DNA of 61,804 bases, counting the filler, from Globobulimina sp. (Eukaryota): assembly GCA_003354225.1 (NCBI GenBank). It is 24 parts of 24 records of this genome, joined end to end, with 100 filler letters (N's around TTAATTAATTAA, not from the genome) between each part and the next. Parts side by side here need not be neighbours in the genome. Positions count along the whole stretch, not along the records: positions 7,744 to 10,224 come from PIVH01006429.1; 23 more parts are not named here. One strand, written 5' to 3'. Each line of letters starts with the position of its first letter. Within the stretch, counting starts at the first letter, position 1. Shown one piece after another: positions 7,744 to 42,151 of this stretch. Under the pieces are notes generated by a model, which saw nothing but the letters and a program-made list of their open reading frames with translations, did no database searches and had not been told where the DNA came from. Position numbers and translations under genes: made by a program.

Positions 7744-7995
7744 GGATACTGAGCACCATTTACGTTTCCAAGGCACGTAAAATGGATGAATTGCTGTAGA
7801 AACAATAACAGTGTTATCACTCAAGGTGATTTGACGTAATTCGTTTACATTGAATTGCAATATCCTTTGCACTGTATTTTCGACCATTAATTGTTTATTG
7901 ACGTCGTACGATAATATTTTTGCGCCAATTTTAACATTTTCAATATTGCTGCATTTCATATTTGATAATAAAATCTGTGTTCCGTTTGGGAAACA
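7744..7995 (-). other. Hint / intein-like domain 2, truncated by contig end
   Basis: [31 protein letters not shown]; aligns by eye with Hint 1. Confidence 0.92.
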
Positions 7996-10224
7996 GCCGC
8001 CGCGTAATCTCAGCACCAAATGCAACTCCGCGCCTTGTCGGATATTATAATTTGATAAACTTCGGCCGTCTTCCAATTGTTTGCCAGCAAAGATAAGCCG
8101 TTGCTGTTCAGGCGGAATGCCTTCGCACTTTTGTATTTTATGTTTAATTGTCTCGATTGTGTCAGAGGGTTCTACATTTAATGTAATTTGTTTTCCGGTT
8201 AATGTGGATACTAATATTTGCATTGCGTTGTGAACTAAAAATCCATTGGCAAAGAAATTATGCACGTTATCGATATGCAATGTATATACTTTTTTATTTT
8301 CTGCAAAATATCTATGTTCAATGTCACAAACCGCAAAGCTTTGAAATTTATGATCCATCAAACAATCGCCAATATGCAATTTATCAATTTTTGGATTGAA
8401 GGATGTGGGTTCAACACAACACCATTTTTGCCGATTTGTGACGTACATCGGATGCGATGGGGTACACATTATTTGTTTGCCGTTATTCAACGTAATAATC
8501 GATAGCTCATTGACTAAATATATCAATACATCCTGAACTCGATGCATTTGTAATTTACTTTCCATCATATTATATGTCAAAACATTGTCATTTACTTTTA
8601 CATCTTCAATGTTCTTACTTTCACCGTGTTGTAATAATACTTTTGTTCCCTCAATAAAACAGCCGCCACGTAGTCGTAATACTAAATGCAACGTAGAATC
8701 GGGCTGAATATTATAGTGTGACAATGTTTTGCCATCTTCCAACTGTTTGCCTGCAAAGATAAGCCGTTGTTGATCCGGCGGAATGCCTTCCAAATCTTGG
8801 ATTTTTTCTTTTATATTTTGTATTGAATCGTTAGATTCGACCTCAATGTCAAGTGTCTTTCCCGTCAATGTCTTAACATGAATTTCGAAAGAAGGCGTTT
8901 TAAAAAATAATAAATCTTTCCATTCGATGCTTTGTTGTGATAATTTAACACCATCTTTAATGGCAATTATTTCCTCGTCATTGAGTGCATTATCACCATC
9001 AGCATATCTGTATAGATATTGAATGTCATATTCTTTTAAAATATCATCCATGTCCTCCAAAGCTAATACATTGTAAACTGAGTGTTGTTTAACAATCAAA
9101 TAATTTACAGAGTCATTCATAGCATAACGGATCCACGAAACATAAATTTCATTTCTTGTTTCATTGGAATCTGTGAAGAATTCAAGCAAATCTGGCTCAT
9201 TCTTTTGTAATTGCAACGTTTTAATATCCGAAACTTGAACATCTCGAAACATTGATTTTGGCACACAATGACTGAAGAAATATACGTTTTGTCCTAAATT
9301 TAACCGCAGATCTTTGGGTGTCGCATCTAATAAATTTGTATCATATCTATACTGATCATATCCCGTTGGAAACCTTTGTTTTCTATCGATTGCAATATGT
9401 ATTTTTTCATTATATTTGGGATAGACTTCAAATTGAATACCACCAACATCTTCAAATATTTCTTCTTTCTCTTCCTTTGCCTCTGCCTCTTCCTCTTCTC
9501 CTCCATCCTTTCCTTTGTCTGAAGTGGAAGTTGCGGCATTATCTTGTTTATCATTGGTTATTTTCTCTTTTTCCTTTAACATTTTCTTGACCTGATGTTC
9601 GACGGTAAATCCTTTCCCTAACGGCATAGCAACAAACTGTCGAACATATCCATCGCCACAATTTATACCATCCAACCATGGCTGTTTGGGCAAACACACA
9701 TAATTCTGATCAGCCATTGTTCGCGATATTAATCTGGATTGCCATTGATTGCCAGTAATCGCATTTATTTTGCCAGCACCAATTTTTACCGCACCTACAA
9801 AACGAAAATGAAGTATATATTATAATATATATTGTTATATAGCAGCATACTAAACATTGTGCGGAGGCATCGAAACTGATCCACATAGCTTCTTTTTGCC
9901 ACATTGGAATGACAACACCTTTTCTTTTTTTCCACTGCTGTGGTAAACCCTCACTGTTGATATAATCGCTAACTTTTTCAATTTCAAAGGCACCCAATGA
10001 TGGAGGCAGAGGATATGTATTATTATCATCAGGAATACGTAAAGTACGTTGAAATTGAATGCGTGCATCGCCAATTTCTAATGTTTGATTATTGCGTAAT
10101 TTAACGGATAAGCCGCCATCATATCTTATTTCTCCTTCAGTTTGAGCAGTTTTTTCTTCTTTGTCATAAATAATAGCTTCATCTAAAAAATCATTCCAAT
10201 ATTCAATGAACTGGGTATTGGTTG
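7744..10224 (-). CDS. Polyprotein: conserved uncharacterised N-terminal domain + ubiquitin-Hint-ubiquitin-Hint (BUBL-like); partial at both ends; intron 9795-9855
   Basis: Frame is open from the contig edge ([36 protein letters not shown]). A 61-nt GTTTAG..TGTAG intron joins it to [15 protein letters not shown] and the 7696-9717 ORF, which holds two LRLRGG ubiquitins each followed by a CF Hint start. Confidence 0.9.
7996..8223 (-). other. Ubiquitin domain 2 (76 aa)
   Basis: [11 protein letters not shown]...[19 protein letters not shown]...[10 protein letters not shown]; 59/76 identical to canonical ubiquitin by manual count. Confidence 0.97.
8227..8661 (-). other. Hint / intein-like (BIL-type) domain 1, 145 aa, no endonuclease
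   Basis: Block A CFIEGTKV, block B TPSHPMYV (TxxH), blocks [24 protein letters not shown] ending His-Asn; the +1 residue is Ala. Confidence 0.95.
8662..8889 (-). other. Ubiquitin domain 1 (76 aa)
   Basis: [11 protein letters not shown]...[19 protein letters not shown]...[10 protein letters not shown]; 59/76 identical to canonical ubiquitin by manual count. Confidence 0.97.
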
Positions 10225-10324: not shown

Positions 10325-11778
10325 ATCACCAGAATACGAATCATTACTTTTCCCACCACACGCTTGAATAATATTACTTTTGTTATCAACATTCATCTCA
10401 AAACTGTCACATTTTATGAATATTGATCCACCACTTCCACCGCCTGAGTATGATTGTAGACCAAGATCTCCGTTTGCAAAAATCTGACCACGATTTTCAA
10501 AATGAGCGCATTCAATTTTCAAGGCACCACCACCATTACCACCCTTGGCATCACCATGGCCTCCACCACCACTTCCTAAGTGTAAAATATTTATTTTTGG
10601 ATCACCACCATTATCAAATGACCGACGTGAATATGTGTTTGTTTTGCCAGCAGTGCCGTATCCACCACCTCCTCCCTCACAACCATGACCTCCACCTCCA
10701 CCACCACCCAAATTATGTTGACCTTGGCTCAGTGAAGGTTTATTGTAAGATTCTCCTGTAAAGCCACCTTTCCCTCCACAATATCCTTTGCCATTTAATT
10801 CAATTTTACCATTTTCCATAATAAGTACATTGCCCAATGATTTAATCAACAGCATTCCTCCAACTTTGTGTTGTGGATTCCAGCTATTTACTGTCAACAT
10901 GCCGTGTGGTGAAATAATTACTTTGCTAAAAATATACTGATGATTTGAATCCAATATTTTTGTTTCATGCTCAGATACAATTAGTTCATTTTCAGATTTT
11001 TCATCATTTTCATTTTCATCAATTTCATGTTCTTGTTTCTGTGATTCACACCTTATACACTGTAGGTTCTATGCACAGAAATTATGATATGTAAACAAAT
11101 AAAATTAAAAAAAAAACATACAAGAAAACTTTCAAAAAACGCATCAATACTTTTACCATTCACGCCAATATTCATAGTATATGTAAGATCATCTTTTTTT
11201 TTAATTTCACCAACTTCTCTTTGTATATTTTTCATTGCCAGCACTAATTTATTTTTTCTATCTGCTTTTGTTAATTTATCATCACAAAAATAACTTTCAT
11301 AGTCGTTGTAAATCTAAACACATCAAACGTGAATGTTGAGCAATAATATTAACACACACAGATATTAACAAATATGCACTCATAACTTTTGCAACCACTT
11401 TGGAAGATTCTTGCAGCACTTCATTGCGTTTCTGTACTTTATTTAAGAGTGAAACTCATTTAATCCATGGATATTTTGACATTTTTGAGAAGATTTGCGA
11501 TATCTATTAATTGAGGAATAACTGTCTGGATAATGATACATTGGGCCATGAATCCACACTGAATGCGGCAATAAGCCATTCTCATGGATCCCTAATACAG
11601 TCTCATGCATTACGTTCATTTTTTGATGCTGATCCAATACGGCCCAATAAATTACATTCAAAATCAAATGAATTATCCATAATGTAATTAAATCCAATGA
11701 AATATCTTTGGAAATGCTTATAAATTTGTGTGTCTTGTTTGAAATTCTTTAAATTGTATAAACTCTTTTGTTGCCATG
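10325..11778 (-). CDS. Glycine-rich repeat domain protein, multi-exon, 3'-partial, apparent frameshift near the 5' end
   Basis: GKIELNGKGYCGG, GGGGGYGTAG, LGSGGGG..GGNGGGALKI, GGGSGGSIFI. Upstream ORF pieces 11053-11244 and 11443-11697 are probable exons; exon structure is uncertain. Confidence 0.55.
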
Positions 11779-23578: not shown

Positions 23579-24852
23579 TTAATTTTGGAATAAAACTTCA
23601 CATAAATTTCCATCCCAAAGATTGTAAGTATTTAATTTACCACTACTTTTGTCCACATTTTTGCTGCCTGGTCGATTTCTACCATGGATCATTTCAAATG
23701 GAATAATTCGTAATTGTGGAATGGTAAAATTAATATATCGAGTTGAGACATGTGGTAAATCCTTAATTGACCACACAACATATCTTATCATCTTTAATAA
23801 ATCAATTTCTTGTAAATGACATAATGAAGTTGATCCAATGCGAATACTGTACGTTGGATATGTTTTCGGATTTGGAACAACAATAAATTTAATAAATTCT
23901 CTCATCAATTTTGTGAGTGTTGTTGGTGTCCATATTGCACCATTTAATCCAACAAAAATATAATTATCTTTGTTAATATCTAAATTCTTGATTTGTTTTA
24001 ATAATTTCGTACGTTTTAATTTGGATAAATTGGAAAGCGTTTTTGATTTTAATTGATGAATCAATTTACGTCTCCGTTTCAATAAAACAAAATACATTCC
24101 ATAGAAATCTAAACATCGACAATGACAATTTGTTACTTCTCAAATTGGAGGGGCCATAAAAATCTCTTTCTGTTCATTCCGAAATTCTTGATTTTTATAC
24201 CAATGTATCAACAACTTTTTGTACCTTCTATGATAGGGTTTGTGTTGATTATGTAACGTAATATCACCCCAACGCAAACCTGTGGTAATAATTTCCCACA
24301 ATGGGTTTTCAGTGTTGTCTGTAAACAATAGTTCTGCCGGGCGGCTCATAGTAAAAAAGGCCATTGTAAAAATATAGGCAGTGGTTAAGTTGTCTAAGGG
24401 ACAGTTATGCCATGTTGATGGTGATACTTTTAAATGTTTAAGATATCTGATAATCCATTGGATTTTGATTGGTAGTCTGGTTGTGCGCTTTTTAAGGTAT
24501 AATTTAAGCATCGTTTTATGGATATCTTTGTAGAATGAATCCATATAATAAACTGGCGTTTTTCCCCACGATTTTACCCACCATGATAATGCCGAGGACC
24601 ATGTTGTATGGGAATTACATGAGCCCAATCTATTGGCTCTATCATATTGCCAATATATTGCTACTGCTGGATTGATATTCGGGGTAAATGGGTCAAATCC
24701 ATTTTCTATATTGTATCCCCACCAATCTTTTAATACAGAAACATAATTTTGTTTGGTAGAAATTCGTCGTTGGCGGAAAATATCACGGATTATCAGATTC
24801 GTAGTTTTCTTGTCTCTTCGAGCAATTTAGTGATTCCATATTGCTTTCGCAT
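23579..24852 (-). pseudogene. Tyrosine recombinase with in-frame TGA (24140-24142) and a probable frameshift near 24800
   Basis: MAFFTMSRPAELL (Arg), GLRWGDI, YSIRIGSTS (HxxR-like), STRYI (Tyr). ORFs 24140-24628 and 23579-24097 share one frame. Confidence 0.75.
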
Positions 24853-25030
24853 TTATAGCTATATAATGTTGTTGTAAAGTGGTTTTTGAAAATGTTTAAA
24901 TAAAAAGAGTTTACAGTCTAAGTGTGTTAGTTTGGATCATGGGAAAGGAAGCTTGCAGTCATTATGTTGTGATTCATAGTATGTCTATCACAATTAAAGT
25001 ATTTGTCATTTAAACATTATATCTGAATTA

Positions 25031-25648
25031 TCAATCATATTTACGTAATAATCTCAAAGTCGGATAATAATCCAAAGATGTTTGTGTATCGTTAAAATTT
25101 AAGTTGTATAAATCAATCGTTTGATAAAAACGATTCCAATCAAACCGCGATAATGAGTCAGCTAAGTCATTGAACGCAGATGGGATGAATTCCACTCTCA
25201 AACCAATGGAATATACACACATCAAAAGGACTATCTCCTGAATGAATTCCATTAATTGTTCACTGCCCGCCCAATGTTTATAGATTGAAAACAAAACCGA
25301 GGTATTATCGATATATAACAATAATTGTCGGCCTGTCAATAAATGTCTATAATTATGGAGCAACATAATGACTGCATGGGCTTCTTGGTAATTAATGGAC
25401 ATTGTTCTATGATTAATGCCATATTTATTTGGTCTGTCGATGAATTTGTAAGCACCAAAATGTTCACCGACGATAAAACCGCCACCAATCATGCTCGCAT
25501 CTGTAGCGCCTGTAATTGTAATGGTTGGTTGGTGTACGATAGAATGCATAGTTACTTTACGCATAAATGTCGCGTATTGTAGCCAGAATTTAAGATCTCT
25601 TATGATGGGATCAGGTATACAGTAGTGTTCCCGATAAGAGGTACGCAT
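25031..25648 (-). CDS. DIRS1-type RNase H (C-terminal part of RT/RH)
   Basis: DLKFW, TDASMIGGG, SINYQEAHAV, YIDNTSV, FIPSAFNDLADSLSR. Confidence 0.88.
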   Translation of the reverse strand: MRTSYREHYCIPDPIIRDLKFWLQYATFMRKVTMHSIVHQPTITITGATDASMIGGGFIVGEHFGAYKFIDRPNKYGINHRTMSINYQEAHAVIMLLHNYRHLLTGRQLLLYIDNTSVLFSIYKHWAGSEQLMEFIQEIVLLMCVYSIGLRVEFIPSAFNDLADSLSRFDWNRFYQTIDLYNLNFNDTQTSLDYYPTLRLLRKYD

Positions 25649-25883
25649 ATTAGTACTAATATTATATAATATACAGCTAATATATATATTAGACTGCGAA
25701 GTTTNNNNNNNNNNNNNNNNNNNNNNNNNNNNNNNNNNNNNNNNNNNNTTAATTAATTAANNNNNNNNNNNNNNNNNNNNNNNNNNNNNNNNNNNNNNNN
25801 NNNNTTTAAGTATTTATATTTAGGTTTTATCTATAATTAGTCTCTGAAATCCTCGCACTTGAGTTGTTCTGTGAGGACGAATC

Positions 25884-26503: not shown

Positions 26504-27015
26504 ATGGGTCAAACATTTTGTTGATACTAAATGTTTGATCTGTTCATGGAAAGCAAATATTTATTTTTTTTTCAGTGTGAGGATATGAACAATTTATTCT
26601 TGGTGAGATGATGTGGAATATCATCATTGAAATATATTTAATTGAATTGTTCTCCTTTCTTTTTATTTGAAGCAACAAAAATTGAGTTCTTAGTATTTTG
26701 AAGAAACAGAAATAAACAAAACGTAACTTTCCCCCCTTAATAGTCAGTAACACAAAAGAACACAATGGGCAATCATCCCACTTTAGATTGTAACAAACAC
26801 CATGAAAATGCAACAAAATGTAAATTCGTGAAAGTAGTGTATCAAATTGATAGTCAATGCGCTCATTGGATCAACCGAAAGCAACCAAAGGTTGAATACT
26901 CTGTGCGCACATAATAAAAAATATATATTTATTCCCTCAAAACAAAACACCCAAACAGTTTGACATAATCTACGATGAAATATTATCAACCAAACACAAA
27001 ACGTCTCAAAACAAA

Positions 27016-28284
27016 GTGAATCAATATTTAAACTCCACCAATCATGTCATGAAATTTCATTATCACGACATAATCAGCGGATATATGCATAAATTACATA
27101 CGCACTGCGACTTAAATCACTGTCTCATGCTTCGACGTAACTTCACCAACAAATTCAAACAGGACACAATATTTTCATACATCGACAACAAACGCAAACG
27201 TTGCCAGGATCCACATCAAATGTTATTTTTCCAGTCTGTGGACTCCATTCATGAGTATATACATCATAACAAAAACGATAACTCACATTTTCTCCAAAAA
27301 CGAAACATTATCAACACCTCCGATGCACAGACACAATATTATGATATTTTAACTTCCCGCTACATCGGCATCAATAATCAAACCTATCCACCACCAAATA
27401 TATCGCACAAAGCCGTGAGTGGTGGCTACGAATCAGACTCTATGTCCACATCAACCTATTTATCCACAACTAAGTCCAACAAAAGTGGCAAGAGCAGCCA
27501 TCACAGCAACAGTAAATTGACAGAATACAAATATGCGCGTTCGTTTTCCTACGATTCCAGCAAAAAATATAAAAGATCCTATGTTGGCTGCAAGTATCCC
27601 GAACTCCGCCAAGAGCTCCACGAAGAATGTAAATTAAGTAAGCGTTGCTGGGAAGGCTTGATTGTGAAATCCAGACAATTGGGAGCTACGCACGAAATTA
27701 AATGCATTCGACATAGACAACATACCGACAAACCATTGTCAACCATTCGCATTTTAATACTGTACATCTATACTTCATACGATTCTTTTCAGACAAAATT
27801 GAACGACGTGGCGCGGCTAAGCTCGAATCCCACTCATCGGCTCAACTTGAAACAAGTCAAGAAGTTGCATAGTACATTGGGTCATTCTTTTAAAATGCTG
27901 ATTGAAACTGTGCAGAATTATGGTTTGCGGAGTGCTGGGCCGCAAACTGTGTATCGAGGGATTAGCATATTGCCGCTATTTAGTAAGTACTTGTTGGTCT
28001 GCTTTGCGCCGTGCAGTACATCGATGTCATTGCCTGCAGCGGTCAACTTTGCAGGTACGTACTGTGGAGTTTTGTTATTTGTTTTTAATTTGTACGCTGT
28101 GCGTGGCTGCGTGTGTATGCAGGTGTGGGTAATGGCTGTGTGTTGGAATTGAATGTGCCGAGCAACTCTACTTACTTTAATATGCAGTATATATCTGCAT
28201 TTAAGATGGAGTTTGAGCTGTTGTTCTATGGAGGAAACAGTTTGTTATGCATTGAACGGATATATCGAAATGTTGGGAGGTGCG
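27016..28284 (+). CDS. R-S-E clade ADP-ribosyltransferase-like protein; intron 28055-28122; partial
   Basis: LYIYTS, VYRG, CSTS..AAVNFA, GCVLEL, ISAFKMEFELLF (ExE). Confidence 0.72.
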
Positions 28285-28384
28285 NNNNNNNNNNNNNNNN
28301 NNNNNNNNNNNNNNNNNNNNNNNNNNNNTTAATTAATTAANNNNNNNNNNNNNNNNNNNNNNNNNNNNNNNNNNNNNNNNNNNN

Positions 28385-30004
28385 CATTAAGTGTGGGATT
28401 GGACACATTTTATGAAAGACTACGCGTTCATAATCAAATAAATAAGTCAATAATTGGAGAAACTGACATTGTTAAAATATTTGGAAATTATCAGACCATT
28501 TACAACGTGAATAGCAAATTATACGCAGATTTGAAGGAGTTGCCATTGAATCGCGGAGTGAATGAATTAATTTATAGTTTGGGCAACAAAATGGTTGATT
28601 TCATACCGTATTTTAAAATATATATTGAATATATTGTTAAAAAGCAAGCTGCCATTTCACATTTGGAACACTTGAAAAAAACAAACAAAGCTTTTCAAGA
28701 GTTTTTGAAAATTAACGGTATGCTTAGTTTCTGTTTATCGATATATATATATTTGATATATTTTATATTGCTTTACATAGAATTATGTGTTAAAACTAAA
28801 TTAAAATCATTGTTGGAGGAGCCAGCTCATCGAATACCGCAATATTTGCAATATTTAGTCAATATATACACGTCCTACAAACACGAGAGAATGAAAAACA
28901 GCGAAAGCGAACAGTTACTATTGCAGTGTATCGGTGATATAAAGAAAGTGTCGGATCAGATAGCGATAAAATGTCGGGATTTGAGGTCTCGATTACTTGT
29001 CGGTACATTATAGAGAGACTTATTTGGAAATAAAATTAAATTGTTATCCGCGCACAGATTCTGTATCGCGTATTCTTCCATGGATATGTTGTTAAGTAAT
29101 AACAATAAGATCAAAGAGTATAAATTTATTTTGCTGAATGATATTTTTCTAATTTCTACATTCCCATCAAAATTTAAATCAGCACAAGTAATGGCAGTGT
29201 ATCCTTTGATCGGTTAAGTTTTAATTATTCTGTACGTATTTGTTATAAATTAATGTGTATTGATTTGCTATATATTCAGGAGTGCGCATCTCGAGATATA
29301 TGAACCAGTCATCATTAGCATCAACAGGATACAAATTAAATTTATTACCGTCAAATATCATTATTATGTTCGACGCTAAACAGAAAATGGAGAAATGGGT
29401 AACAATCATTCAAAATGCCGTGGATAAACAGGAACATTCAATGAAGCAATGCAATGTGGTCGATTTAGAAAAAAGAGTCAGAAATCAGAAGACATCCAAA
29501 GAGGGAGAATCAGAAACGATAAATATTACAAATCCTGCACGAATTAAAGCGATTGAAAAATGGAAAAAGCAACAAATTTCGCCATTTGCCTCGATTCCAA
29601 CACTTAAAAAGGAGTCCAAACCAAAAACAGCAACAAGAAAAGCGCGGAGCAAAACGTTTGGGGGAATCAAAAAAAAAGAAAAAAATTTATTGAAAAGACT
29701 TGCTTCGTTGAATAAGGGAACTTCGGCGGACACAGATTCATCGCAACCAGACAAGAAAGGGAAAGTTCGTGTTATGAGAGACGAAGAAGTCTTGCAATTT
29801 GATGAAGAAATACCAATGGAAAATTTTATGAAGGCTTTGAATTCCGGTTTTGTGAAAATTACAAATGAAGAGGAACAGATGGAACAATATAAGAAAGCTG
29901 CTGCGACAGCAAAGAATTTAGTCGATTCTTCCTTGCAAGTTTACAGAGCCTCGGTGTTCTCGGATGATTGGGATAGTTCTGACAGCGATGAGTATTGGGA
30001 TTGA
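28385..30004 (+). CDS. RhoGEF (DH-PH), 5'-partial, with introns and an in-frame TAG at 29011-29013
   Basis: IFGNYQTIYNVN, FIPYFKIYIEY, LLEEPAHRIPQYLQYL (DH); LLSAHRFCI..FILLNDIFLIS..MEKWVTIIQNA (PH). Confidence 0.82.
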
Positions 30005-30161
30005 TTGTATTTTTTGTGGTAATATATATGTTTTTGTGTGTTTTCGTGAGTTTTTGTATTTATAAAAACGTGTTGTTGTGTTTTTTTTGATTGTTATGAA
30101 GTTTTATTTGAAGAGTGTCTCGATAGCAAAGTCTCGATAGAAAAGTTTTGATAAATCTGCC

Positions 30162-30863
30162 ATGTCAACATTAGCAAGGGCGGTTTTTGTTTGTTTGTTG
30201 GTCGAAACGATTGCATTGGTGTCCATAGCTGAAGATGCATGTGATTCAAACTTGGATTTACTTGAAATATCACCAGCAGATTTACCAAATGTCAGCTCGG
30301 AGGATTTAAGAGATATACTTTTTAATGTCGGTTTTATGAAATTAGCAATGGCGCCAAAAACATATACAATGTTAGAATCCGCGGCATCTACAATTAAACA
30401 ATGGTTCGGCAATGTAGATATTGAAAATCTTGACGAAAAATTATTATTATCACATTGGCAAAAACAAGATATATTTTTTGGATATACGAATCGAATGAAA
30501 AATCCCACGCAACAACAGGTTCAATCATTTTATTTCCCAAAACGTTTTATGTATAAAAAAAATATATTTCCGTTTATAAATGATACAAATGTTGTAAATA
30601 TTGTACAATTTATGATGGAAAAAACCGAAGAAACATTTAAAGAAATTTGGGATAAGTTCGATGATATATTTACAACGGAACAGTTCGAAACAATTATGGG
30701 CCCAAATCCAAGCATACATATTGCTTTTAATTATTATGATTCAGAAATGTCAGATTATAAGCAGAATGTGTTTGGTTTAAACGAACATAGCGATTTTTGG
30801 TTTATTACATTGTTATTTGCGGACAAAAACGGATTTCAAATTTTATATGGTGATAAGTGGTAC
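30162..30863 (+). CDS. 2-oxoglutarate/Fe(II) oxygenase (IPNS-like), 3'-partial
   Basis: FNVGFMKL, FNYY, GLNEHSDFWFITLLFAD..GFQI...KW (HxD motif); hydrophobic N-terminus. Confidence 0.8.
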
Positions 30864-30963
30864 NNNNNNNNNNNNNNNNNNNNNNNNNNNNNNNNNNNNN
30901 NNNNNNNTTAATTAATTAANNNNNNNNNNNNNNNNNNNNNNNNNNNNNNNNNNNNNNNNNNNN

Positions 30964-33442
30964 ACTCGATGACGACGACGGCGACATCGACATCCCGGCA
31001 CTGTTCATGATGGTGAAGGACATAAATTTATTTATCTCAGATTTGTACTCATCGGCGATGATTCCGCCAAATATCTCGATTTTGGCCACGGTTTCGGCGC
31101 TGCAGAATGGACACAATGTGGTCCATTGTCCGCTGCGTCGAATGCTGGAAATATTGTTCATTTTCATATTATTGTCCCGTTCGCGCGAAGGCACCGTGCG
31201 GTTATTCAAGCTGTTTATATTTGGCAAGTGTGGGTTTTCTGAGATACTTTTGCTTTTACTGATGCTTATGGCCTGGCGGTTGTTTATCATCGCGATGTCT
31301 GAGGAGGACCGGCCCCGCGTAGCGGCGGTGGGCATTTTGCTCTGTTTTTCTTCTTTTTTCTTGATGGTCACGGTTAGATTTTCGTTTTTAATCAGGTTTT
31401 GATTGAAGACTGGCATTTGAGGCGACATTGGTTTTTGTTTTTGGCTTTTTTGTTGCGAGATTTTAATGTTTTGAAAACCGGCTAATATCTCTTCGCCGCT
31501 TAGTCGATGTTTGCAGTTATTACATTTGCAAGAAAGTAGCAATTTGTTTGGCAAATCGGTTAGGAAATAATCAAAAAAAGATTCAGCCTCACAATCACAA
31601 CAATGATTGAATGGATAGGAATCGGTGGGATCCTGATCTTCAAACGACCACTCTGTGCGGTGTGGTAGAGGCAATTTATAATTCGCGTCAGATGCGTTAT
31701 AATATTGTTCAAATTTCCTATATTCGACATGGGATCGGCGGGCATGCGACGCCATTATCTCTTGTAAATATTTTACCGACGGTATGATATTCAAACGGAT
31801 CATCAATCTGTGTATGAAATGTAGGCAAACTGTCACATTTTGGCATAGCTGTCATGGTTTAAAATGATTTTCACTCAAAAAAAAAAACGTTTTGAACAAT
31901 GCCAGCTTGACACGAAAATGTCAGATAATTTCACAACAAACCTGTCCAACAGCACCAACTCTCGATACATTGCACAATGTGAGGGTATGACGCATAATTC
32001 GCGCATGATTAACTCCGTCGGTTTATAACCTTTCTTCAACATCGACTCAAATACAATTAAACAAGCAATGAAATCTCGCTTTGGTGACACGGTGTGGATA
32101 GACAGCCGATTAATTGCGTGGTGGTTAAATATGCTAAACCAGGTCAAATAGATCTTATCTATAAAGTTATTGATCGTATTATTCATAGTCTTGCTCTTAC
32201 ATTGCCGATGTATATACGGCGACGCTTTGTGGTACTTCCCCGCCGACGGCTGCATAATGGCATCGATGTAATGATTGAAACCAATCAAAATATCCGCTAA
32301 AAAAAGCACATACGACTCATCCATCGAAGCGGATTTCAATTTGTCAAATTCAGTCGGCTGGGTGCTATATTTCAGCACATTGCCATTCCCATTACACACA
32401 GAGCTTTGTTTGCGTGCCGATAATTGACCGTATTTCTCCATTAAACGCTTATTTAAATGCGGGAATAAGTCATATCGATAGGGAGACAACGTCAGCTCTT
32501 CGTGCGTTGGATTTGAGTCTGCGCTGCGTACAATAAATGAGCTGTAAATCAAATACGGATCTTCCAATTGCAACTCATTTAGTTGTGTAATTAAATCGCA
32601 TTCTAAGTCTACAAATATATGAAATTGCGATAGCGATTTTTTGCGTTTGCGGTTTTTTTTGTGCTGCGACGCATTCGTAGTGGTCGTGGTGGTGGTCGTT
32701 GTGGTGGTGGTCGTGGAGGAACTGTCGCTTTCGTTTTGTGTGTCGTTTTGTTGCTTGTTTAGTTTGTTTAAGTTTTTGATATTTAAGGAGTCGGTGGCGT
32801 CGCTGGTGATGGCTTGCATGGTTTTGCCGATGAAGTAATCGAATGTGATCAAGTTGTGATTTTGATACCGTATATCCTTCGAACATCGCAAGTTAATAAA
32901 CCTTTGGAACGAGTGCGTTTTCATGAAATCAGAGATAAAAACTTGCTGGTTTTCAGGCAATGAGTCTACAAATTGCTCACTGTCAAAACTCATGGCCAGG
33001 CTATCCGTGGACGTATACCGCAAATAATTGCGATAAAACCGGAAAATGTCCACGAAAAATTGCACAAACGATAGCCGCACCGCTTCCTCATTAAAATACT
33101 CATTTTGGTTCAACATATTTGATATCTTCATATCCAATTTCACGTATTTCAACAACCGTATTTTCAGTTTATTTTTGATGGATTTCGGGACCAATTGAGC
33201 CGATTCGCGCTCTTTTTTGCCTTTATACGAGTTAATCGGTCGTTTGTTGCATGTAATAATATGGTTATCCAGGTCGACGGTGATGACATTATTGGCGATG
33301 ATCAACTGATCGTAAAAGGAGCGATGCATACCGAATATAAACGGGACGGGCGCCTCTAAGATCCGCGCAAAAGATTCGGGCAACACCGGTATGAAATTGT
33401 ATTGATACTCAAACGGCCACAGCAACGACTTCATCGGGTACG
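30964..33442 (-). CDS. DENN-domain Rab GEF, partial, with intron
   Basis: SLLWPFEYQYNFIPVLP..ILEAPVPFIFG, VDLDN, FVQFFVDIFRFYRNYL, FMKTHSFQRFI. Confidence 0.88.
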
Positions 33443-33542
33443 NNNNNNNNNNNNNNNNNNNNNNNNNNNNNNNNNNNNNNNNNNNNTTAATTAATTAANN
33501 NNNNNNNNNNNNNNNNNNNNNNNNNNNNNNNNNNNNNNNNNN

Positions 33543-34412
33543 ATTCCAATTATTCATAGTTTCGTTATATTGCAATGGATTATACTCCGGATCCATTAAC
33601 AAAACTGACCACAAACATTGATCCACCAAACCAACGCTGTTAATAAGCTCAGCAAACCTAAATTTATCTGCATTTTTAAATACGTGCATTTGTTTCGATA
33701 ATAATTGCTTTGTCCACGCCGTATTTTTGTACAGTACGGACCCAGAATTTAACAAATCCATTTCTCCAAAATCTTTAGCAAAGATAATATCCATTGAATT
33801 ATTCATTTGTTTTGCATATATTCGCTGTGTGTAACCTAATATTTGTTGTATGGATACAGTGCAATTAAAAAATATGGCATCAAAATCAATCCATAATATA
33901 TAATCCATCGAGTTTCCAAATATCGGATCTGTTAATATCGAATGTACAATAAACGTTTTTTGCGCTTTGTACATTGCATGGGCCGTTGGCGCGTTTTCCG
34001 CAAAATATTGCGAAATGTTTGAATCATTGAATAGCAATGCATTTACGTCGAAATATATGTAATTGTGAGTCATTGCGTAATTTATATGGTTTGGTAAAAT
34101 CGTTTTTTCAATGTATGACATTGCTTGTTTGCCATAATAATGAAATGAGGCAATCCCGGTGGTGAGATCAGTTTGCTTGCTATTGTGTGTACAGTTAATT
34201 ACTCGCAAATGTGGTATGTGCCATGTGTAAACGTTACAATTTGATATATTGTTGTTTTGGTGCAGTGTATGTTGTATTTGTGATGTTTTGGGATAAATGG
34301 AGTTATTAACAGCTATGTGATAAATGAAGTAATTGGAGCATATAGCAAAGGAAAACACTGCAAATAAAATGCAAAGAGTATTGTTTGCTGTTGCTTTAGA
34401 TCCAGTTAGCAT
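33543..34412 (-). CDS. Type II membrane glycosyltransferase (GT34-like), 3'-partial
   Basis: N-terminal TM, NHINYAMTHNY, DYILWIDFDAIF (DxD), LNSGSVLYKNTAW, DQ. Confidence 0.8.
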
Positions 34413-34507
34413 TAGCGTTGATTGTTTTTTTTATTCTGTTTTAGGACCCATTACACGATGAACTTAAAAAAAATGACTCAAAAACATGCAAAAAAAAATG
34501 GGGAATT

Positions 34508-35743
34508 TTATATTTTATGTTCAATATTTTGACTTTTTGGTGACACAGAATCTTGAAAATCTGATTTTGAATATGATTTGATTGAGTTCATTGTTACGAT
34601 TGCTTTCTCTCTATACACACAATAATAACAGCAACAACATATATATTTAACGAAGATATTCCATGCATTTTTAGTGAAGCTATACATAAACCAAACACAA
34701 AAAGCGTTCACTATCAAATCAACTGATACTAAATAAGCAATTTCCACAATTACTGCTGTCATACCAAAGGCGAATAACGATGAAAAACATGAAAAGAAAA
34801 CCAATATCGTTTGTTTCCGAGTCAGCAGAATCATATTATATCTGCGATGGCCATGTGTTTCATTCTCAGGATTGACCATTTTGATCACCTTTATTCATCA
34901 TCAGAATTAAAGAAATGCATCTGCGGCGTCGCACTTTTCGTAGCACTTTTCCAATTTGTGTGGCGCCTCACTTTTTAATTAAATATATGGCGTCACACTT
35001 TTTAATTAAATATGTTTGTGTATAAATTGGAAAAGTGCGACGCCGCAGATGTGGCGTCACAATGTTGTGCTTTTAGTCTACTGCTATGATATCATGGATT
35101 GATATAACTTAACTGTTCTCAACTTATACACAAACAAACAACATACAAATATTGACCATATAACATCACAGATAAACATTGCTCCGATAACCACAGATAA
35201 ACTTGTTTTTTGTTGTTCAGATCCGACACCGAAAGATGAAGTACATATTCCTATCACTGATTGGTTTGCACGCTCGAAATGTACCAACGGCCACGATATA
35301 ACAATATGTGCTATATTAATGATAACGATATTGCAGATATAGAGCGTTAATATAATAATTAAAAACGATGATTTATATCCTATTGAAGATGCATGGAACG
35401 CCATATGTATTCGATTTAAAAATATACAGAATAAAAATATTTTGCATAAAAAGACTCCATTTGTACACCAAAAAAATCCAAATCGACAACTGATCACCGG
35501 TCCCATTGGCAATATTAAATTTGTTTTGAATATGCCAAATCCTATGGATGCTGCTACGCTGCAACTAAAAAATATAATGGACAGATATCGTGAATGTTTA
35601 GAGCCAAGTTTGTCATGTTGCTCATGGTATATTGAGTGTGCCCCAATTATTGTTATTACCACAACACCAAACATTCCGAGAATAGCTGATACATATAACC
35701 ATTCAGGTTGCAGACCCGTTGTCAGGGTGATGGCCATTATCAA
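34508..35743 (-). CDS. Seven-transmembrane GPCR-like protein; intron 34889-35113
   Basis: Five hydrophobic helices in exon 1 and two in exon 2; FLNRI..AF, LFVYKL, D..VN.FC..MY motifs. Confidence 0.7.
34918..35051. repeat. GC-rich inverted-repeat element inside an intron
   Basis: CATCTGCGGCGTCGCACTTTTC (34918-34939) is the exact reverse complement of 35030-35051; internal direct repeat CACTTTTTAATTAAATAT x2. Confidence 0.85.
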
Positions 35744-36121
35744 AATTGTTGGAAATGTAAGAGAAAACTTCGGTATACCTTAACGATATATTCCAAAAAA
35801 TAACCCTCACCCCCTTTGTATACCGAAAATTCAATTCTAAATTTGTTCTGACTTTGTTCTGGATGTTCAAACCCAAGACAAAGTTATAACAAACACAGTG
35901 CAAACCTATAGTCAGTAGCACAACAATACTATCATTACATTTATTCTACAAAAAAACTGTTCGCTGTTATAATAGATGTAAATAAGTGACTAACTTGTTT
36001 TTTTTTTTTTTAATGGCACAANNNNNNNNNNNNNNNNNNNNNNNNNNNNNNNNNNNNNNNNNNNNTTAATTAATTAANNNNNNNNNNNNNNNNNNNNNNN
36101 NNNNNNNNNNNNNNNNNNNNN

Positions 36122-36752
36122 AGATGCATATTACATGCAACCTGAAGCAATGAATGGTAATATTTCAATGGAATCAGATGTTTGGTCATTGGGTATATTA
36201 GCAACTGAATTAGCAACTGGTCAGCCTCCAAATTATCAGCTAAAACCTATGCAAGCAATGATGTTGTTATTCAAAGATGAATATAAAATGGATGAGGACA
36301 TAATATTTGGTGCTAAACAATGTTCGAAAGAGTTTAAAGATTTTATTTCCGTTTGCATGGTAAAAGACAAAACAAAACGGGCAAAGTTAGATGAATTATT
36401 ATCGCATAAATGGTTAAAAGATGTCATGAATAAAGAAAAAGAGATGGAATATAGAAATGAATTGAAATTATGGTTAAAGGAGAGATTGGAAGTAGTTATA
36501 AAACAAAGAGATTCAAAATCTGTATTTAAATGGTCTAAAAATAAATCATTTTACACTCAATTATCTTGGGTGGAATTCAAGAAATTGCATAGTGTGAGTG
36601 GTTCAGTTATTACATCTGTGGATAGTGTGTTTTCTTCGCCGTCCAAGAATGATAGTATTTCCAATCGAAGAATTGCTAGCAATTTAAGTTTGACATCAAT
36701 GGAGTTTCAATCAACTCTTGTTATTCATGATGACATCGATGAAGACAAATGA
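36122..36752 (+). CDS. STE20-like kinase C-lobe, 5'-partial
   Basis: YYMQPE, SDVWSLGILATELATGQPP, FKDFISVCMVKD..KR..ELLSHKW. Confidence 0.85.
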
Positions 36753-36856
36753 TTGTCTGTTGATTTTGAAAAGGTGTTATTTAAATACATCTAAATTCCT
36801 TGGGGAAGTCGGAGGAACAACATTTTCTAATTGTTATTTTCAGTGCACTCAAGGCA

Positions 36857-37182
36857 ATGGAAACGAAATTGGCTGAATTCGAGAACGTTAAACAGGTATT
36901 AAAACGTGGTTTGTGTGAATGAATAAGTGATGTGTTATATTTATTAGTTAAAATAAATAGAATGCGTATAACACACAAGAAATTAAATGCATTTGTGGTG
37001 AATATTTAAAGAGAACGATAATTGAGAATGGATCGCCATTAATAGGCGCAGATTGTGATGCATGTGGCAAAATAGCTAAATATGATCATATATTTTGGCA
37101 TTGCACATTTGATAATTATTATATCCATTGTCACGGGTTTGATATTTGCGACAATTGCAGTTTAAAATGTTTGTCTCCTTAA
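36857..37182 (+). CDS. Small ZZ-like zinc-finger protein or exons; intron 36896-36960; not in the ORF track
   Basis: Manual translation KCICGEYL..CDACG..FWHC..HCHGFDICDNC; start codon uncertain. Confidence 0.55.
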
Positions 37183-37349
37183 TTATACTGTTTGCATTTC
37201 TGTAGATAGTTGATTGTGTATTATTTTCCAATAACAGACTGTCAAGAGATATTACCTAAATATTTAGCATTAAAAAATGAAAATAGTTAAGTGCAAACCA
37301 CACAAAATAATTATTAATATATATTAATATATATATTAAAGATGACCAT

Positions 37350-38523
37350 TTGCGAGAAGAAAAGAAACAAAATGTTGATGAATATCCATCAGTAAACGTT
37401 TGCAGAGAGACATCAAATTGTTATCGTTTGAAGAGACTGCTTCATATTTTACGGAGCTACAATACAAATGACATACAAATAGATGCAATGGATATTACCG
37501 AAACGTTAAATGATTATTTGCATATTCAGCACGCACATTGTTTGGATCAGCAATTTGAATCTGTTGTGCAGCAGTTGGGGAATTGTAATATTTCAAAATG
37601 TAGCAAGTTTCGACGGAACAATAGAAACAGAAATGATATTGATACCACCCACAAAGGTACAATGTATATTTCTTTTTGCCGTTTTGATTGATTCATCGCG
37701 TAATGTCCTAATAAGACAACGACGTGACATACGTGGATGAAATATGCAGGAATCTATCAGGTGTTGGAGTAGCCGATATTTTCATTAATAAATTGAAACA
37801 CTTTATAGAATATGAAGAATTTGATAGTGAATCTCTTGAATATGACATGTCAACCAATGACGGAAATATATCAAAATATATCAACAATCAACAGTTTATC
37901 CACTGTATCAAAGAATGTATAAAACATTATGATGGTATGGTATTGTATTTATTTTATATATTATGACATTACATAACATTTTGATAACAATTTATTACAC
38001 AGCGAATGAAGTATGCATTGAAATCATGGATGCAATTCATTGCTATTTTCAACATTGTTATGACATTGGAAACAGATTAACGTTGAGTGAAAAAAGAATG
38101 GTGAATGATACACTATGTGATGATGAAAATGTAGTCGACGCGTATTTGATTAATAAAAAAGTAGCGACCATTGCTCAAATACTAACAGATAAACGAGATA
38201 AACATAAAATTATTTCCAGACAACTATCTGAGAATGCAAATAAAAAATATAACCAATTGTTTTCAAAAGAATATTTACAGTTTGATAAAAAATATTTGTT
38301 TGGTTTTTTGTTTCAATATGGATATACTGACGAACATCAACCAGAGTTGGATGATTATGACATTTATGATATGTTCCAAGTTCACCCAAAATACCAAACA
38401 TTAAAACAAGAATTAACAGCAAACAGTATTCGTGTTATTACTATTCAACAATTTAAAAACGAATATAATAAATCAAAAATAGGGTTGAGGTTTCCTAGGA
38501 GGTCACTCTCATTGACTTTTTAG
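37350..38523 (+). CDS. Multi-exon paralogue of the 27016 ART-family protein (N-terminal region only), possibly truncated
   Basis: Shared motifs CNISKCSKFRRN / CDLNHCLMLRRN, MDAIHCYFQH / VDSIHEYIHH, PKYQTLKQEL / CKYPELRQEL. Confidence 0.55.
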
Positions 38524-38700
38524 TCGCATTTGTCATTTGAATAGTCACTTAGTAACTACGTAGTCACTTACAATAACTAAATAGTCAATGAATTTTGTTG
38601 NNNNNNNNNNNNNNNNNNNNNNNNNNNNNNNNNNNNNNNNNNNNTTAATTAATTAANNNNNNNNNNNNNNNNNNNNNNNNNNNNNNNNNNNNNNNNNNNN

Positions 38701-41000
38701 AGCCACTTCAAACAAAGCGGAATGAGTGCTGTTTTTCAAACTTATTGTAATTAAATAAGGATCGCAGTGGTTAGCTTCGACTGACTCGGATTTGGTTGCA
38801 CCGTCTTTGTAGATTTCAACACCAACAATATTCGATGCTGCTTCGTATCCAATTAATTGCGGAGAAGCAACAAAATTATCATTCATTGTCTTCATTGTTT
38901 GCATAAAATGATTTTGGTAAAATAAGCTCTTCATTTTGAAAACCGCATTTTTGTTGAAACGTATTATTATAAAAACTATTTTTAAACTTTACAGCTTTGA
39001 CAACCTTATTATGTCTGGACTTATATTGGAAGAATTCGCCAGGAAATGAACGGGTTAATGCTAAATGAGATCCATATAAACCGAAATATATCAATTGCTC
39101 AGAAAATAGATTTGTAATATTTGTGGGAGTCGTCAATATTTCAGACTCTTTTAAAACAATTTCAATATTTTCAATTAAAATCTGTGATGCAATGGAGATT
39201 GGAAATAAATCTGTATTTGTGCTGTTTTTGCTATAATTTGTAATAACTCCGTCAATGATTTGGCGCAAATAACGAGTCACTACATCGACAGTGTTTGAGT
39301 TAGCAATGAATGGATTGGATACGATCGTGGCCAATGTGCTTAGTTCAGAGGTTAATGTCCGTTCAAATGCTATGTTGCTGTGGTTGTGAGCAGTGAGTAT
39401 TGGCGACGTATCGAGTATATTGTCAATGATGTCGTTAATTATTACTGCTGCTGTATTTTCATCAAATTTGTTTTCTTGGAATAAGCCATTGATGACAGAA
39501 TATGCTGCGATGGCCACATCATTGGAGTGACCCAAATCTGTGTCGTTCATAATATTATATATTTCATCTATTAATATATCTTCATAATGTTCAATGTTGC
39601 TGTTGTTTGCAAATATTTCTTTTATTGAAGGAAACGACGCAGGAAAGCTATAGCAAGTCAGTGATGACCAACTGTCCTTTATTAATGCAACAATTTCAAA
39701 ATCGCCCACATCGACAATTCCATTTATTGCAGAAGCATCACTCTCAAACATTGCAGACATTGGTGCGTTATAATGGGAAAATAATGCGTTATATGTCAAT
39801 GACTCACCACTCCATCCGGAACATTGCAAATTAAATTGGTTTAATACAATAAATTCATTGTCATCCGCAACAACACCGCATGTACCGCCTGATGGCAACT
39901 TTCGTGTTGTAACCGAAACAGCATCGGATTCAAACATATTATCGAATATATTTATAGCTATTTTGAAACTGTATGCATTTCCTGGTTGTAATAAGTGTGT
40001 GGCTGACTGCTTTCTATCGACACAATATCCACTGTTTTCGGTTCTGATCGAAGTGATTATCAAATGCGATGCAAATATGTCATATTCCTCACCATCAATG
40101 CTCACATATTGGCCAATTTTATCATTATATATTGTCACCAAAGAGTTTGAATAGAAATCGTTTAAAAATATAAACTCATCATTGACCTTATCATTATTTA
40201 AGTTTTTAAGATACCATTCAAAACATGCAAAGCATACTGGATCCAAATTGAATGTTTTCTTAATATATATTTGTATCAAAGTTTCAAATCTTGCAAAGGC
40301 ATCGCCAATAATTTGATTATTTAATGCTTCATTCCATACAAATGTTATGTTCTTAAAAGCCACAGTGGGCGGTGAGGATGGTGGCGATGTTGGCGGTGAG
40401 GTTGGTGTTGAGGTTGGTTGTAATGTCAATAAAGTTGGTGTTGAGGTTGGTGTTGGTGTACAAGGTTGTGGTACTTGTATCTTCCCACCATACACACACG
40501 ACAGTTATGCCCCATATAATGCGTATTGTCCTTCGCTACTATCAAACCTGCCATGCAAGGATATTTCCAAAATATGCGTCCGTGCATTGCCCACTTGAAT
40601 ATTCCACACAAACATACCATCCGCCACAGCCACCACGGGATCAGAATATGCAATCAACGACGACAACATATAATTATCAAGCAAACAATCACAAGGTAAT
40701 TGTAAGCGTATTTGGACGATATCTTCCACTGAGTTATAATCTACAGCCACCGCATACGTTACCTCGGTCAGATCATCATAACACGAATATCGCGAACCAT
40801 AATACGTCAACTCCCAATCCATAGCTTGCGGGGTGCTGACATTGGCACCATTACATACTCCATACTGTTATGAATAACAAACAACATTCCACATTACAAA
40901 TTGATTACAACACACAGTGACATACGTTTCCAGGATTTTCAATCGCCGAACATTGCGACATAGGGTCAATCGGTGTGGTGGTAAACGGTGTGGATGCATA
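38701..41000 (-). CDS. REJ/PKD-like extracellular protein with PT-rich stalk; in-frame TAA at 40505 and frameshift near 38905
   Basis: LLQPGNAYSFKI, LPSGGTCGV, FNLQCSGWSGESLTY, IVALIKDSWSS resemble the REJ module; 5' boundary approximate. Confidence 0.6.
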
Positions 41001-41385
41001 CGAATTCGAATGACATAGTAAAAATTGAGTCGCTGTATTGAGAATGGTGATTTAATGTGTTTAGAGCGGATAAGGAATAAAATACCTATCAAGATATATA
41101 TAATAAAACAATGAATGAAATTCATTGAAAATTTAGGTTTGTATGTCAATTTGAAATGAGCAATGTTACATTATTACTCNNNNNNNNNNNNNNNNNNNNN
41201 NNNNNNNNNNNNNNNNNNNNNNNTTAATTAATTAANNNNNNNNNNNNNNNNNNNNNNNNNNNNNNNNNNNNNNNNNNNNTAAATCATATAAGGTAACGAT
41301 AGCCAGGATTGATAGAAATAGTTGAAGTAAGTTGATAAAAATGCATTTTACACAAAAATATGACACAAATTGCACACAGTCAAAC

Positions 41386-42151
41386 TCATTGTTCTTTTTT
41401 GTCATTGACTGCAACATAAAATTGTACCAAAATCTTCATTCCATAATTTTCATTGTGTGGTAAATACGGAACCGGATCAGTAAGTTCTAATTTTCTCCAT
41501 TTTCCGTTTTTCTCCATTTCATCAAAATATTGCAAATCATTCACCATCAAATCACTTCTATGCGAACAAATAATTATTGAGCCAGGCTTTGTAATTCTAA
41601 GCCATTCATCGAATAATTTAATTTTATTCTTCTCCATCGCATACGTTAATGTCCCAGCACATGTTAACAAATCAAATTCATTCTCATCATAAGGAAAAGG
41701 GAATACATTTAAATTCCATTGTTTTAATTCTCTATATCCTTTTTCCTTTGCCATTGGAAATTGCCCCGTTGATAAATCACTGCCATGCATTATATCACTA
41801 AAAGAATAATAAAAAAAAAAGATACATATAGTTATAACTATAATTATACAAATTAAATGTATGTACACACTCAATATCTGGATGGTTTTCAATAATTTCT
41901 TTTCCGACCAAACCAGTACCACATCCTAAATCAAATACTTTTATTTGTTGGGAATCATATTTTGTACAATGTGTTTTCATGAGACTCGCAGTGATTGCTG
42001 GTACTTCATATCCCCATTCAAGTAAACAATCATCATAAGATCCCGCCCATTCATCGTATAATGATATAGTTTCATTTGAGCCCATGTTCGTATGCAACGA
42101 AGCTAATTTTAATTTCCATTCTTGTGCTGTCAATTCTATCATGCAAATCAT
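41386..42151 (-). CDS. Class I SAM-dependent methyltransferase (METTL27/WBSCR27-like); one intron
   Basis: LYDEWAGSYD, VFDLGCGTGLVG, GSDLS..MAKEKGY, FDLLTCAG, LRITKPG. Confidence 0.85.

Follow-up and report, generated by a model that had tools for sequence, protein, structure and literature searches.

A gene that alternates ubiquitin and Hint domains

In this study, we analysed a stretch of DNA of 61,804 nucleotides (hereafter the window) from Globobulimina sp. (GenBank assembly GCA_003354225.1). The window is not a single locus: it consists of 24 contigs of about 2.48 kb each, separated by 23 spacers of the form N44-TTAATTAATTAA-N44, and its GC content is about 0.27-0.39. The gene of interest lies on the minus strand of one contig of about 2.5 kb (PIVH01006429.1, positions 7744-10224) and is truncated by both contig ends. 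Its product carries two ubiquitins, each followed by an intein-like Hint domain, and, as seen in orthologues, this array splits a conserved domain of bacterial type (hereafter the host domain). An earlier reading made from the sequence alone (the sequence-only reading) had taken the protein for a candidate self-activating ubiquitin ligation system, and had noted that BUBL proteins are described from ciliates. The mechanism is indeed the one published for the BUBL proteins of ciliates; what is new here is the foraminiferal kin, the rhizarian-type spacer, the near-canonical ubiquitins and the splitting of a conserved domain by the array.

The array is carried by a 707-codon minus-strand frame that is open under the standard code and reaches the spacer at 7744. 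Pfam detects in it ubiquitin (E 5.1e-56, two stretches), PT-HINT (E 3.9e-14, two stretches), Intein_splicing (E 4.4e-14) and Hint (E 4.1e-10). Pfam, translation and tblastn all give the alternation ubiquitin 1, Hint 1, ubiquitin 2 and Hint 2 within one reading frame; the coordinates of the parts, taken from translation and tblastn, are collected in Table 1. The two Hints share 39.8% identity across 83 residues (tblastn). Other contigs of the window hold standard-code frames of 796 and 859 codons, and such long frames point to an AT-rich eukaryote in which TAA and TAG are not read as Gln.

The coding frame begins further upstream than the Met at 9717: the exon at 9856-10224 joins it from upstream across a 61-nucleotide (nt) intron. 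Near-identical contigs were found in the public runs of four studies, and the intron is gone in three of the four runs compared. Exactly its 61 letters are missing in contigs of the runs X2, X6 and X8 (three studies), while a piece from X1 (9698-9850) retains it. The spliced reading agrees with the orthologue P0182 from Nonionella, which reads straight through the splice.

The run contigs also reach beyond the ends of the window contig. One X2 contig of 1085 nt extends 363 nt past 10224. Another, of 2733 nt, spans 7744-9460 with 31 differences, and its other 1016 nt most simply continue past 7744. At that end, the Nonionella protein P0124 goes on for 309 residues beyond the point where the window stops, with the rest of Hint 2, a third ubiquitin-like domain without GG, the C-terminal half of the host domain and a zinc finger. 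The spare of about 1 kb in the X2 contig fits such a remainder. The sequence-only reading had suggested that more units might follow; further ubiquitin-Hint units after Hint 2 are unlikely, since the orthologues complete Hint 2 and then carry a single ubiquitin-like domain without GG and a C-terminal domain, and since the 2733-nt contig has only about 1 kb to spare.

In X2, X6 and X8, the contig depth reaches about 27,000-42,000 at 7993-8158, the most conserved part of ubiquitin 2, with 10-128 in the adjacent bins and no more than about 141 elsewhere on the stretch. This peak presumably comes from contigs of ordinary ubiquitin genes matching at 90% likeness, and it is thus uninformative on the expression of the ubiquitin-Hint gene.

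Table 1. Parts of the ubiquitin-Hint gene, listed in the direction of translation, and the adjoining separator
Feature	Position	Strand	Description and basis
Exon 1, 5' side cut by contig end	9856-10224	-	First part of the N-terminal half of the host domain; open frame and tblastn
Intron, 61 nt, GT..AG	9795-9855	-	From sequence; skipped in run contigs
Exon 2, first part	9418-9794	-	Remaining N-terminal half of the host domain, including an acidic linker of low complexity; tblastn with P0282
Middle region, about 176 residues	8890-9417	-	Between the N-terminal half of the host domain and ubiquitin 1; aligns with P0182, P0183, P0125 and P0126
Ubiquitin 1	8662-8889	-	Pfam; N-terminus fused to the middle region; LRLRGG end
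Hint 1, 145 residues	8227-8661	-	A-type BIL / BUBL kind; PDB sequence and fold matches
Single Ala	8224-8226	-	Between the terminal Asn of Hint 1 and Met1 of ubiquitin 2; +1 residue of Hint 1
Ubiquitin 2	7996-8223	-	Pfam; 59/76 against canonical ubiquitin
Hint 2, first 84 residues	7744-7995	-	Cys1, TAIH; cut by contig end; tblastn with Hint 1
Artificial contig separator	7644-7743	.	N44-TTAATTAATTAA-N44, not biology

Kinship with foraminiferal and ciliate proteins

Relatives were collected with the Hint region. A word-based search gave 59 proteins at E<=0.001 among 434 candidates, and a HMMER scan of 1.84 billion representatives gave 4563 at E<=0.001, 528 at <=1e-10 and 28 at <=1e-30. We examined 201 proteins (P0123-P0182, together with 141 new identifiers among the best 150), and 34 of them possess both ubiquitin and Hint. 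Names are available for 13 of these 34: six come from Nonionella stella and six from Bolivina argentea (foraminifera, EukProt), and one is the Tetrahymena protein Q236S8; the remaining 21 are ENA or JGI proteins. P0124 and P0182 represent the same gene, and there is overlap between P0123 and P0127. Identity to the window protein is 71.7% for P0183 (322 columns) and 64.3% for Nonionella P0182 (653 columns), as compared with 40.4% for Tetrahymena P0346 (324 columns). The nearest named relatives of the window protein are foraminiferal (Nonionella, Bolivina) and not ciliate, and the gene most likely comes from a foraminifer using the standard genetic code.

Other ubiquitin-Hint proteins have no host domain and carry different flanks (P0123, P0127, P0128, P0304, P0306, P0316, P0322, P0326, P0332 and P0361), P0123 being an array of four ubiquitins and three Hints. 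The presence of several such proteins in the Nonionella and Bolivina transcriptomes indicates that the cassette forms a multi-gene family in foraminifera, with 12 named proteins from two species in the examined set. The Rhizaria thereby become, after the ciliates, the second major protist lineage with the BUBL design. In the literature searched, whose coverage left aside most subscription journals and supplements, we found no description of a ubiquitin-Hint array outside Tetrahymena.

The two ubiquitins of the window are each 59/76 (77.6%) identical to canonical ubiquitin, for which a fish polyubiquitin from the homology matches served as reference. Both retain L8, I44, K48, H68, V70 and the LRLRGG end. 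K63 is replaced by Pro in ubiquitin 1 and by Gln in ubiquitin 2; K33L is a further change in ubiquitin 1, K6S and K33C in ubiquitin 2, and ubiquitin 1 begins with FEIHV where canonical ubiquitin has MQIFV. At both junctions the Gly-Gly is bonded directly to Cys1 of the Hint (LRLRGG-CF), and this junction recurs in relatives. Hint 1 has Cys1, a block-B T-P-S-H, the HNFFANG motif and a terminal His-Asn; it has no endonuclease, its 145 residues leaving no space for a homing endonuclease. Hint 2 keeps Cys1 and a block-B T-A-I-H ahead of the contig end. On these points the sequence-only reading was accurate: it had described two ubiquitins about 78% canonical that keep LRLRGG, I44 and K48 and have lost K63, each placed directly before Cys1, and a complete first Hint devoid of homing endonuclease.

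The catalytic logic that it had assigned to the Hints is also borne out in homologues. Among 332 full-length Hint domains, 31 stand directly after a detected ubiquitin; Cys is the first residue in 31/31 of these and His-Asn the last in 30/31. In a 22-row alignment that includes Tetrahymena, Cys1, the following Phe, the block-B His, the Asn of HNFF and the terminal His-Asn are invariant, and the His of HNFF is nearly so.

Hint 1 was compared alone with the sequences of the PDB, as queries including ubiquitin were swamped by polyubiquitins. Twenty distinct sequences were found at E<=1, and the best four are all from BIL2 of Tetrahymena thermophila BUBL1 (6Y75, 6TMM; E 1.5e-11 to 1.7e-11). The NrdJ-1 intein (E 3.8e-7) and the BIL domain of C. 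thermocellum (2LWY, E 4.1e-5) rank after them. We also modelled ubiquitin 1-Hint 1-Ala-ubiquitin 2 with AlphaFold2 from 22 aligned sequences (predicted local distance difference test, pLDDT, 88.4; predicted template modelling score, pTM, 0.65). In a fold search covering 48,161 representative chains, the best match of the model is 6TMM (Z 25.5, root-mean-square deviation 1.8 A, 155/156 residues aligned), followed by 2LWY (Z 21.6, deviation 1.4 A, 136 residues aligned); the mini-inteins gp41-1, NpuDnaB and NrdJ-1 reach Z 18.9-19.9.

The sequence-only reading had called for a tree with the ciliate BUBL Hints. We ran a quick IQ-TREE search on 96 Hints and 149 columns, with support from the Shimodaira-Hasegawa-like approximate likelihood ratio test (SH-aLRT). 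Its rows are all 31 ubiquitin-preceded Hints and, from each of the 65 top-scoring proteins that have no full-length Hint right after a detected ubiquitin, the best Hint. Twenty-eight rows, the foraminiferal-type Hints, cluster together (SH-aLRT 94), as do the 7 rows of Tetrahymena type (SH-aLRT 82). The two types adjoin in a set of 37 rows (SH-aLRT 87) that is separate from 57 ubiquitin-less Hints. Three rows of the foraminiferal group counted as having no ubiquitin (P0325, P0327 and P0334) in fact follow divergent ubiquitin-like domains ending in RGG, IGG or HGG. Judging from these sequences, the foraminiferal-type and Tetrahymena-type Hints are likely to be of common descent.

Comparison with Tetrahymena BUBL1 (UniRef Q236S8, 'polyubiquitin / NAD(P)(+)--arginine ADP-ribosyltransferase') reveals both likenesses and differences. 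As in the window, ubiquitin-like domains ending in GG alternate there with Hints that have Cys1, the block-B His, HNFFANG and a terminal His-Asn, with no requirement for a Cys, Ser or Thr at +1. Its BIL2 is the best sequence and fold match of Hint 1 and is grouped with it in the tree. On the other hand, a C-terminal ADP-ribosyltransferase (ART) domain is present in Tetrahymena P0346 and in P0331 and P0307 (3/3 tested), while it was not found in the foraminiferal-type P0124, P0125, P0127, P0128, P0123 and P0353, the C-terminus of the window protein itself being missing. We know of no source that makes the ART domain a defining feature of BUBL proteins, and we count it as a difference and not as an exclusion. 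The window family also differs from Tetrahymena by its split bacterial-type host domain, seen in 12/34 proteins, and by ubiquitins that are much more canonical (59/76).

The Hint itself resembles the A-type BIL domains (C. thermocellum 2LWY; PT-HINT, PF07591) in its fold and its Pfam match, and also in its C-terminal His-Asn and the lack of a +1 nucleophile. Bacterial BILs, unlike those of the window, lie within variable secreted or toxin proteins and not after ubiquitin. With the canonical mini-inteins (gp41-1, NpuDnaB, NrdJ-1), the window Hint shares the horseshoe fold, Cys1, the TxxH motif, the terminal His-Asn and the lack of endonuclease. However, inteins need a Cys, Ser or Thr at +1 and tracelessly rejoin one host protein, whereas the +1 residue of Hint 1 is Ala and the window Hints stand between independently folded ubiquitins. 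Moreover, an intein occupies a conserved site in one host protein; here, it is the array as a whole that would sit in a loop of one conserved domain, each Hint lying between ubiquitin domains.

This Ala recalls another feature. Archibald et al. (2003) and Bass et al. (2005) reportedly described an insertion in rhizarian polyubiquitin, as cited by later papers. Two such papers (PMC3014934, PMC12930898) place it where monomers meet and give it as one or two residues (A, S, T or others). Our homology matches include conventional polyubiquitins with such a spacer: in P0104 it is A (8 junctions), in P0043 either T (7 junctions) or A (3 junctions). We counted by eye the residues that follow His-Asn over 40 printed Hint/ubiquitin junctions: Ala-Met is found in 19/40, Ser then Met or Trp in 4/40 and Thr-Met in 2/40 (25 in total for A, S or T), other residues in 7/40. 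The remaining 8/40 have no spacer and are all of Tetrahymena type: in these 8/8 junctions His-Asn is directly followed by Met or Lys. In rhizarian polyubiquitin, as in the window family, A, S or T precedes Met1 of the next ubiquitin; there the spacer directly follows GG, while in the window a 145-residue Hint stands between GG and the spacer. The sequence-only reading had taken the +1 Ala as a block to canonical splicing. The Ala is indeed present and is not Cys, Ser or Thr; nevertheless, it is better read as the spacer residue of rhizarian polyubiquitin, and A-type BILs, according to the literature on them, lack a +1 nucleophile in any case. The match suggests that the arrays arose from, or share a history with, rhizarian polyubiquitin.

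The contig is short and cut at both ends, and the assembly is highly fragmented, so that one could think of an inactive relic, an assembly chimera or, as the sequence-only reading had itself considered, ciliate contamination. The probability that we give to such an explanation is close to negligible. Indeed, 707 codons are open under the standard code, the catalytic residues are intact, and near-identical contigs come from the runs of four studies; of the four runs compared, three lack the intron. Among named proteins, the closest ones belong to foraminifera (64% identity over 653 columns). Finally, reading the Ala as the rhizarian spacer argues against ciliate contamination, the A spacer being absent from the Tetrahymena-type group.

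A host domain of bacterial type interrupted by the array

The sequence-only reading had noted an N-terminal domain ahead of ubiquitin 1. There is indeed such a sequence; it is, however, no domain on its own, being the first half of a conserved domain of about 330 residues that forms a bacterial family of proteins of 320-340 residues and that the array interrupts. In tblastn, the N-terminal half in the window is 48.8% identical to residues 2-82 of Thermincola potens P0282 (329 residues) in exon 1 and 63.2% identical to residues 88-152 in exon 2. Bacterial homologues such as P0282 have both halves in one piece; there, about 35 residues separate the motif GGIQ..VY from the motif EMGLAAGGKMKQ. In P0124/P0182, P0125, P0130, P0308, P0319, P0344 and P0353, the ubiquitin-Hint array comes between the two motifs, and the second one, with all that remains of the domain, is found only beyond it. 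The motifs EMG.AAGG and PWF.LYD of the C-terminal half were seen only in orthologues, and halves of the host domain are present in 12 of the 34 ubiquitin-Hint proteins.

A confident model of the bacterial domain (pLDDT 86.9, pTM 0.85) has a sole disordered stretch, at 181-198 between two strands, and this is exactly the insertion point. From this position, the array and the middle region of about 176 residues are predicted to be inserted together into a single domain, at a loop on its surface. The middle region (8890-9417) is kept in foraminiferal-type orthologues; apart from a weak edge match, it has no Pfam family at E<=0.1, and the Atlas gave no usable match.

The host family is widespread, with at least 584 hits in a collection of one genome per species and 50-70% identity across phyla, and some records label its members 'integral membrane protein'. 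We found no Pfam or NCBIfam model for it. The domain is rich in beta structure; Foldseek returned no PDB match at E<=0.001, and the best score in a wide fold search (VIA) was Z 4.2, to generic beta-sandwiches only, giving no function from fold. In bacteria, an astacin-like metallopeptidase gene adjoins the host-domain gene on the same strand in 17 of 80 loci (L001-L080) and on the opposite strand in 1 more, and genes of sigma-70 type were located upstream in 6 and in 5 of the 80 loci. We considered deducing a function from these neighbours and rejected it, the association being too weak.

At their C-terminal end, P0124, P0125 and P0130 carry a RanBP2/NZF-like finger and a tail VEDGDW, which the tail VIDGKW of P0282 resembles. 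Only the finger of P0124 (Trp-x-Cys-x2-Cys..Cys-x2-Cys) has a Pfam match, a weak one to the RanBP2 zinc finger (E 0.009, below the Pfam cut-off). Ubiquitin is a frequent ligand of NZF fingers. That the array lies nested in this widespread and unstudied bacterial-type domain points to a ubiquitin-related function for the domain.

In the Atlas, an Ascomycota cluster named 'Ubiquitin-like domain-containing protein' (482 residues; ubiquitin Pfam in 89% of members) resembles the N-terminal half of the host domain, with a language-model score of 0.83. As a lead only, this cluster hints that fungi also combine the host domain with a ubiquitin-like domain.

Proposed autoprocessing and fate of the ubiquitin thioester

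Taken together, sequence and analogy lead us to propose that the window gene probably represents an incomplete foraminiferal-type BUBL gene, whose Hints would conjugate ubiquitin to amines. By orthology, the full protein would comprise the N-terminal half of the host domain, the middle region, ubiquitin 1, Hint 1, Ala-ubiquitin 2, Hint 2, a third ubiquitin-like domain lacking GG, the C-terminal half of the host domain and a RanBP2-type zinc finger. Each Hint would first turn the Gly76-Cys1 peptide bond into a thioester by an N-S acyl shift. The terminal Asn of the Hint would then cyclise between His-Asn and Ala and release the downstream chain, and the ubiquitin thioester would finally be resolved by an amine (a lysine or the freed alpha-amine) or by water. 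About 500 residues precede ubiquitin 1 in the same chain, so that unit 1 would activate the entire block made of the N-terminal half, the middle region and ubiquitin 1, while unit 2 would activate Ala-ubiquitin 2. Activation would proceed without E1, E2 or ATP, as reported for Tetrahymena BIL2.

A ubiquitin-Gly76 thioester is a reasonable inference because BIL2, the nearest solved relative, is described as forming an isopeptide bond without ATP. According to the CASP14 paper (PMC8616854), BIL2 sits between two ubiquitin-like domains and conjugates the ubiquitin-like domain by an isopeptide bond without ATP; PMC9200820 agrees. For BIL2, the CASP14 paper refers to Dassa et al. (2004) and Chiarini et al. 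(2019, 2021). Activation of BIL2 by Zn is also reported.

Alternatively, the Hints could act as self-cleaving spacers. The thioester would then be hydrolysed and the precursor cut without a deubiquitinase, nothing being conjugated, and the products would be free Ala-ubiquitin 2, a host domain with a nick, and the block that runs from the N-terminal half to ubiquitin 1 and ends in a free GG. We hold this to be unlikely, even if A-type BIL domains, according to a review, cleave at their ends and often leave their flanks unligated, if the +1 residue is Ala and no nucleophile, and if the same conserved Hint residues suit cleavage equally well. Indeed, the homologous BIL2 is reported to yield isopeptide products (PMC8616854). 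The retention of LRLRGG, I44 and K48 at 78% identity also suggests selection for a role in ubiquitin-dependent processes; the same residues would, however, be required in free ubiquitin as well.

In a further scenario, the Hints would splice in cis in spite of lacking a +1 nucleophile: the freed alpha-amine of Ala would attack the thioester and leave a linear GG-Ala-Met chain, and the host protein would be rejoined with a tri-ubiquitin loop of rhizarian style inside. Dassa et al. 2004 (JBC), to judge by its title, describes splicing by BIL domains without a C'-flanking nucleophile. In addition, GG-A-MQIF is the junction found in conventional spacer polyubiquitins (P0104, P0043), and both ends of the insert lie in one loop of a single domain. 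Yet the review states that A-type BILs cannot ligate their flanks, and BIL2 is reported to form an isopeptide and not a peptide bond (PMC8616854). Besides, in Nonionella the residue after Hint 2 is Lys and the next domain has no GG. All in all, we regard cis splicing as quite improbable.

Conjugation to amines thus remains our preferred reading, and several points weigh against it. Ubiquitin 1 is fused at its N-terminus to a large domain and would not be released as free ubiquitin. The reference homologue BIL2 is just 23% identical to the model in the fold alignment, and the primary BUBL work is known to us only through two citing papers. Support in the tree is moderate: it comes from a quick search on 149 columns, and no starred branch joins the foraminiferal-type and Tetrahymena-type groups. 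The window carries only the N-terminal half of the host domain, the C-terminal half, the third ubiquitin-like domain and the zinc finger being taken from orthologues that are 64-72% identical. That the X2, X6 and X8 contigs represent RNA is a guess, as the kinds of run are not on record. Above all, autoprocessing, and still more the acceptor of the thioester, are deduced from sequence and analogy. Lysine, the freed alpha-amine and water are not separable by sequence; we rank conjugation to lysine first, hydrolysis by water second and attack by the freed alpha-amine third.

If conjugation does take place, the products could plausibly enter the normal ubiquitin system, the ubiquitins being 78% canonical with LRLRGG, I44 and K48. 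The gene offers a compact natural ubiquitin-Hint-ubiquitin cassette for testing ATP-free ubiquitin transfer. A bolder proposal, which we regard as a long shot, is that foraminifera possess a second, E1-free route of ubiquitylation, in which Hint-charged near-canonical ubiquitins are passed to lysines in vivo, and that the A/S/T spacer and the ubiquitin-Hint arrays share one origin. If this were true, the spacer, a rhizarian signature since 2003, would be the +1 residue of a Hint and might be the scar of a Hint lost from between the monomers. The match between Hint +1 residue and polyubiquitin spacer provides a testable idea on the origin of a classic phylogenetic marker.

Elsewhere in the window, the next contig contains on the minus strand (10325-11068) an open frame rich in Gly runs (GGGGGGHGCEGGGGGYG, GGGSGGSIF), which is repeat-like and truncated by the contig end. 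Two mobile-element-like frames, judged by eye only, lie on the minus strand at 24140-25704: one is integrase- or recombinase-like and the other RNase H-like, with the motif TDAS..GGGF.

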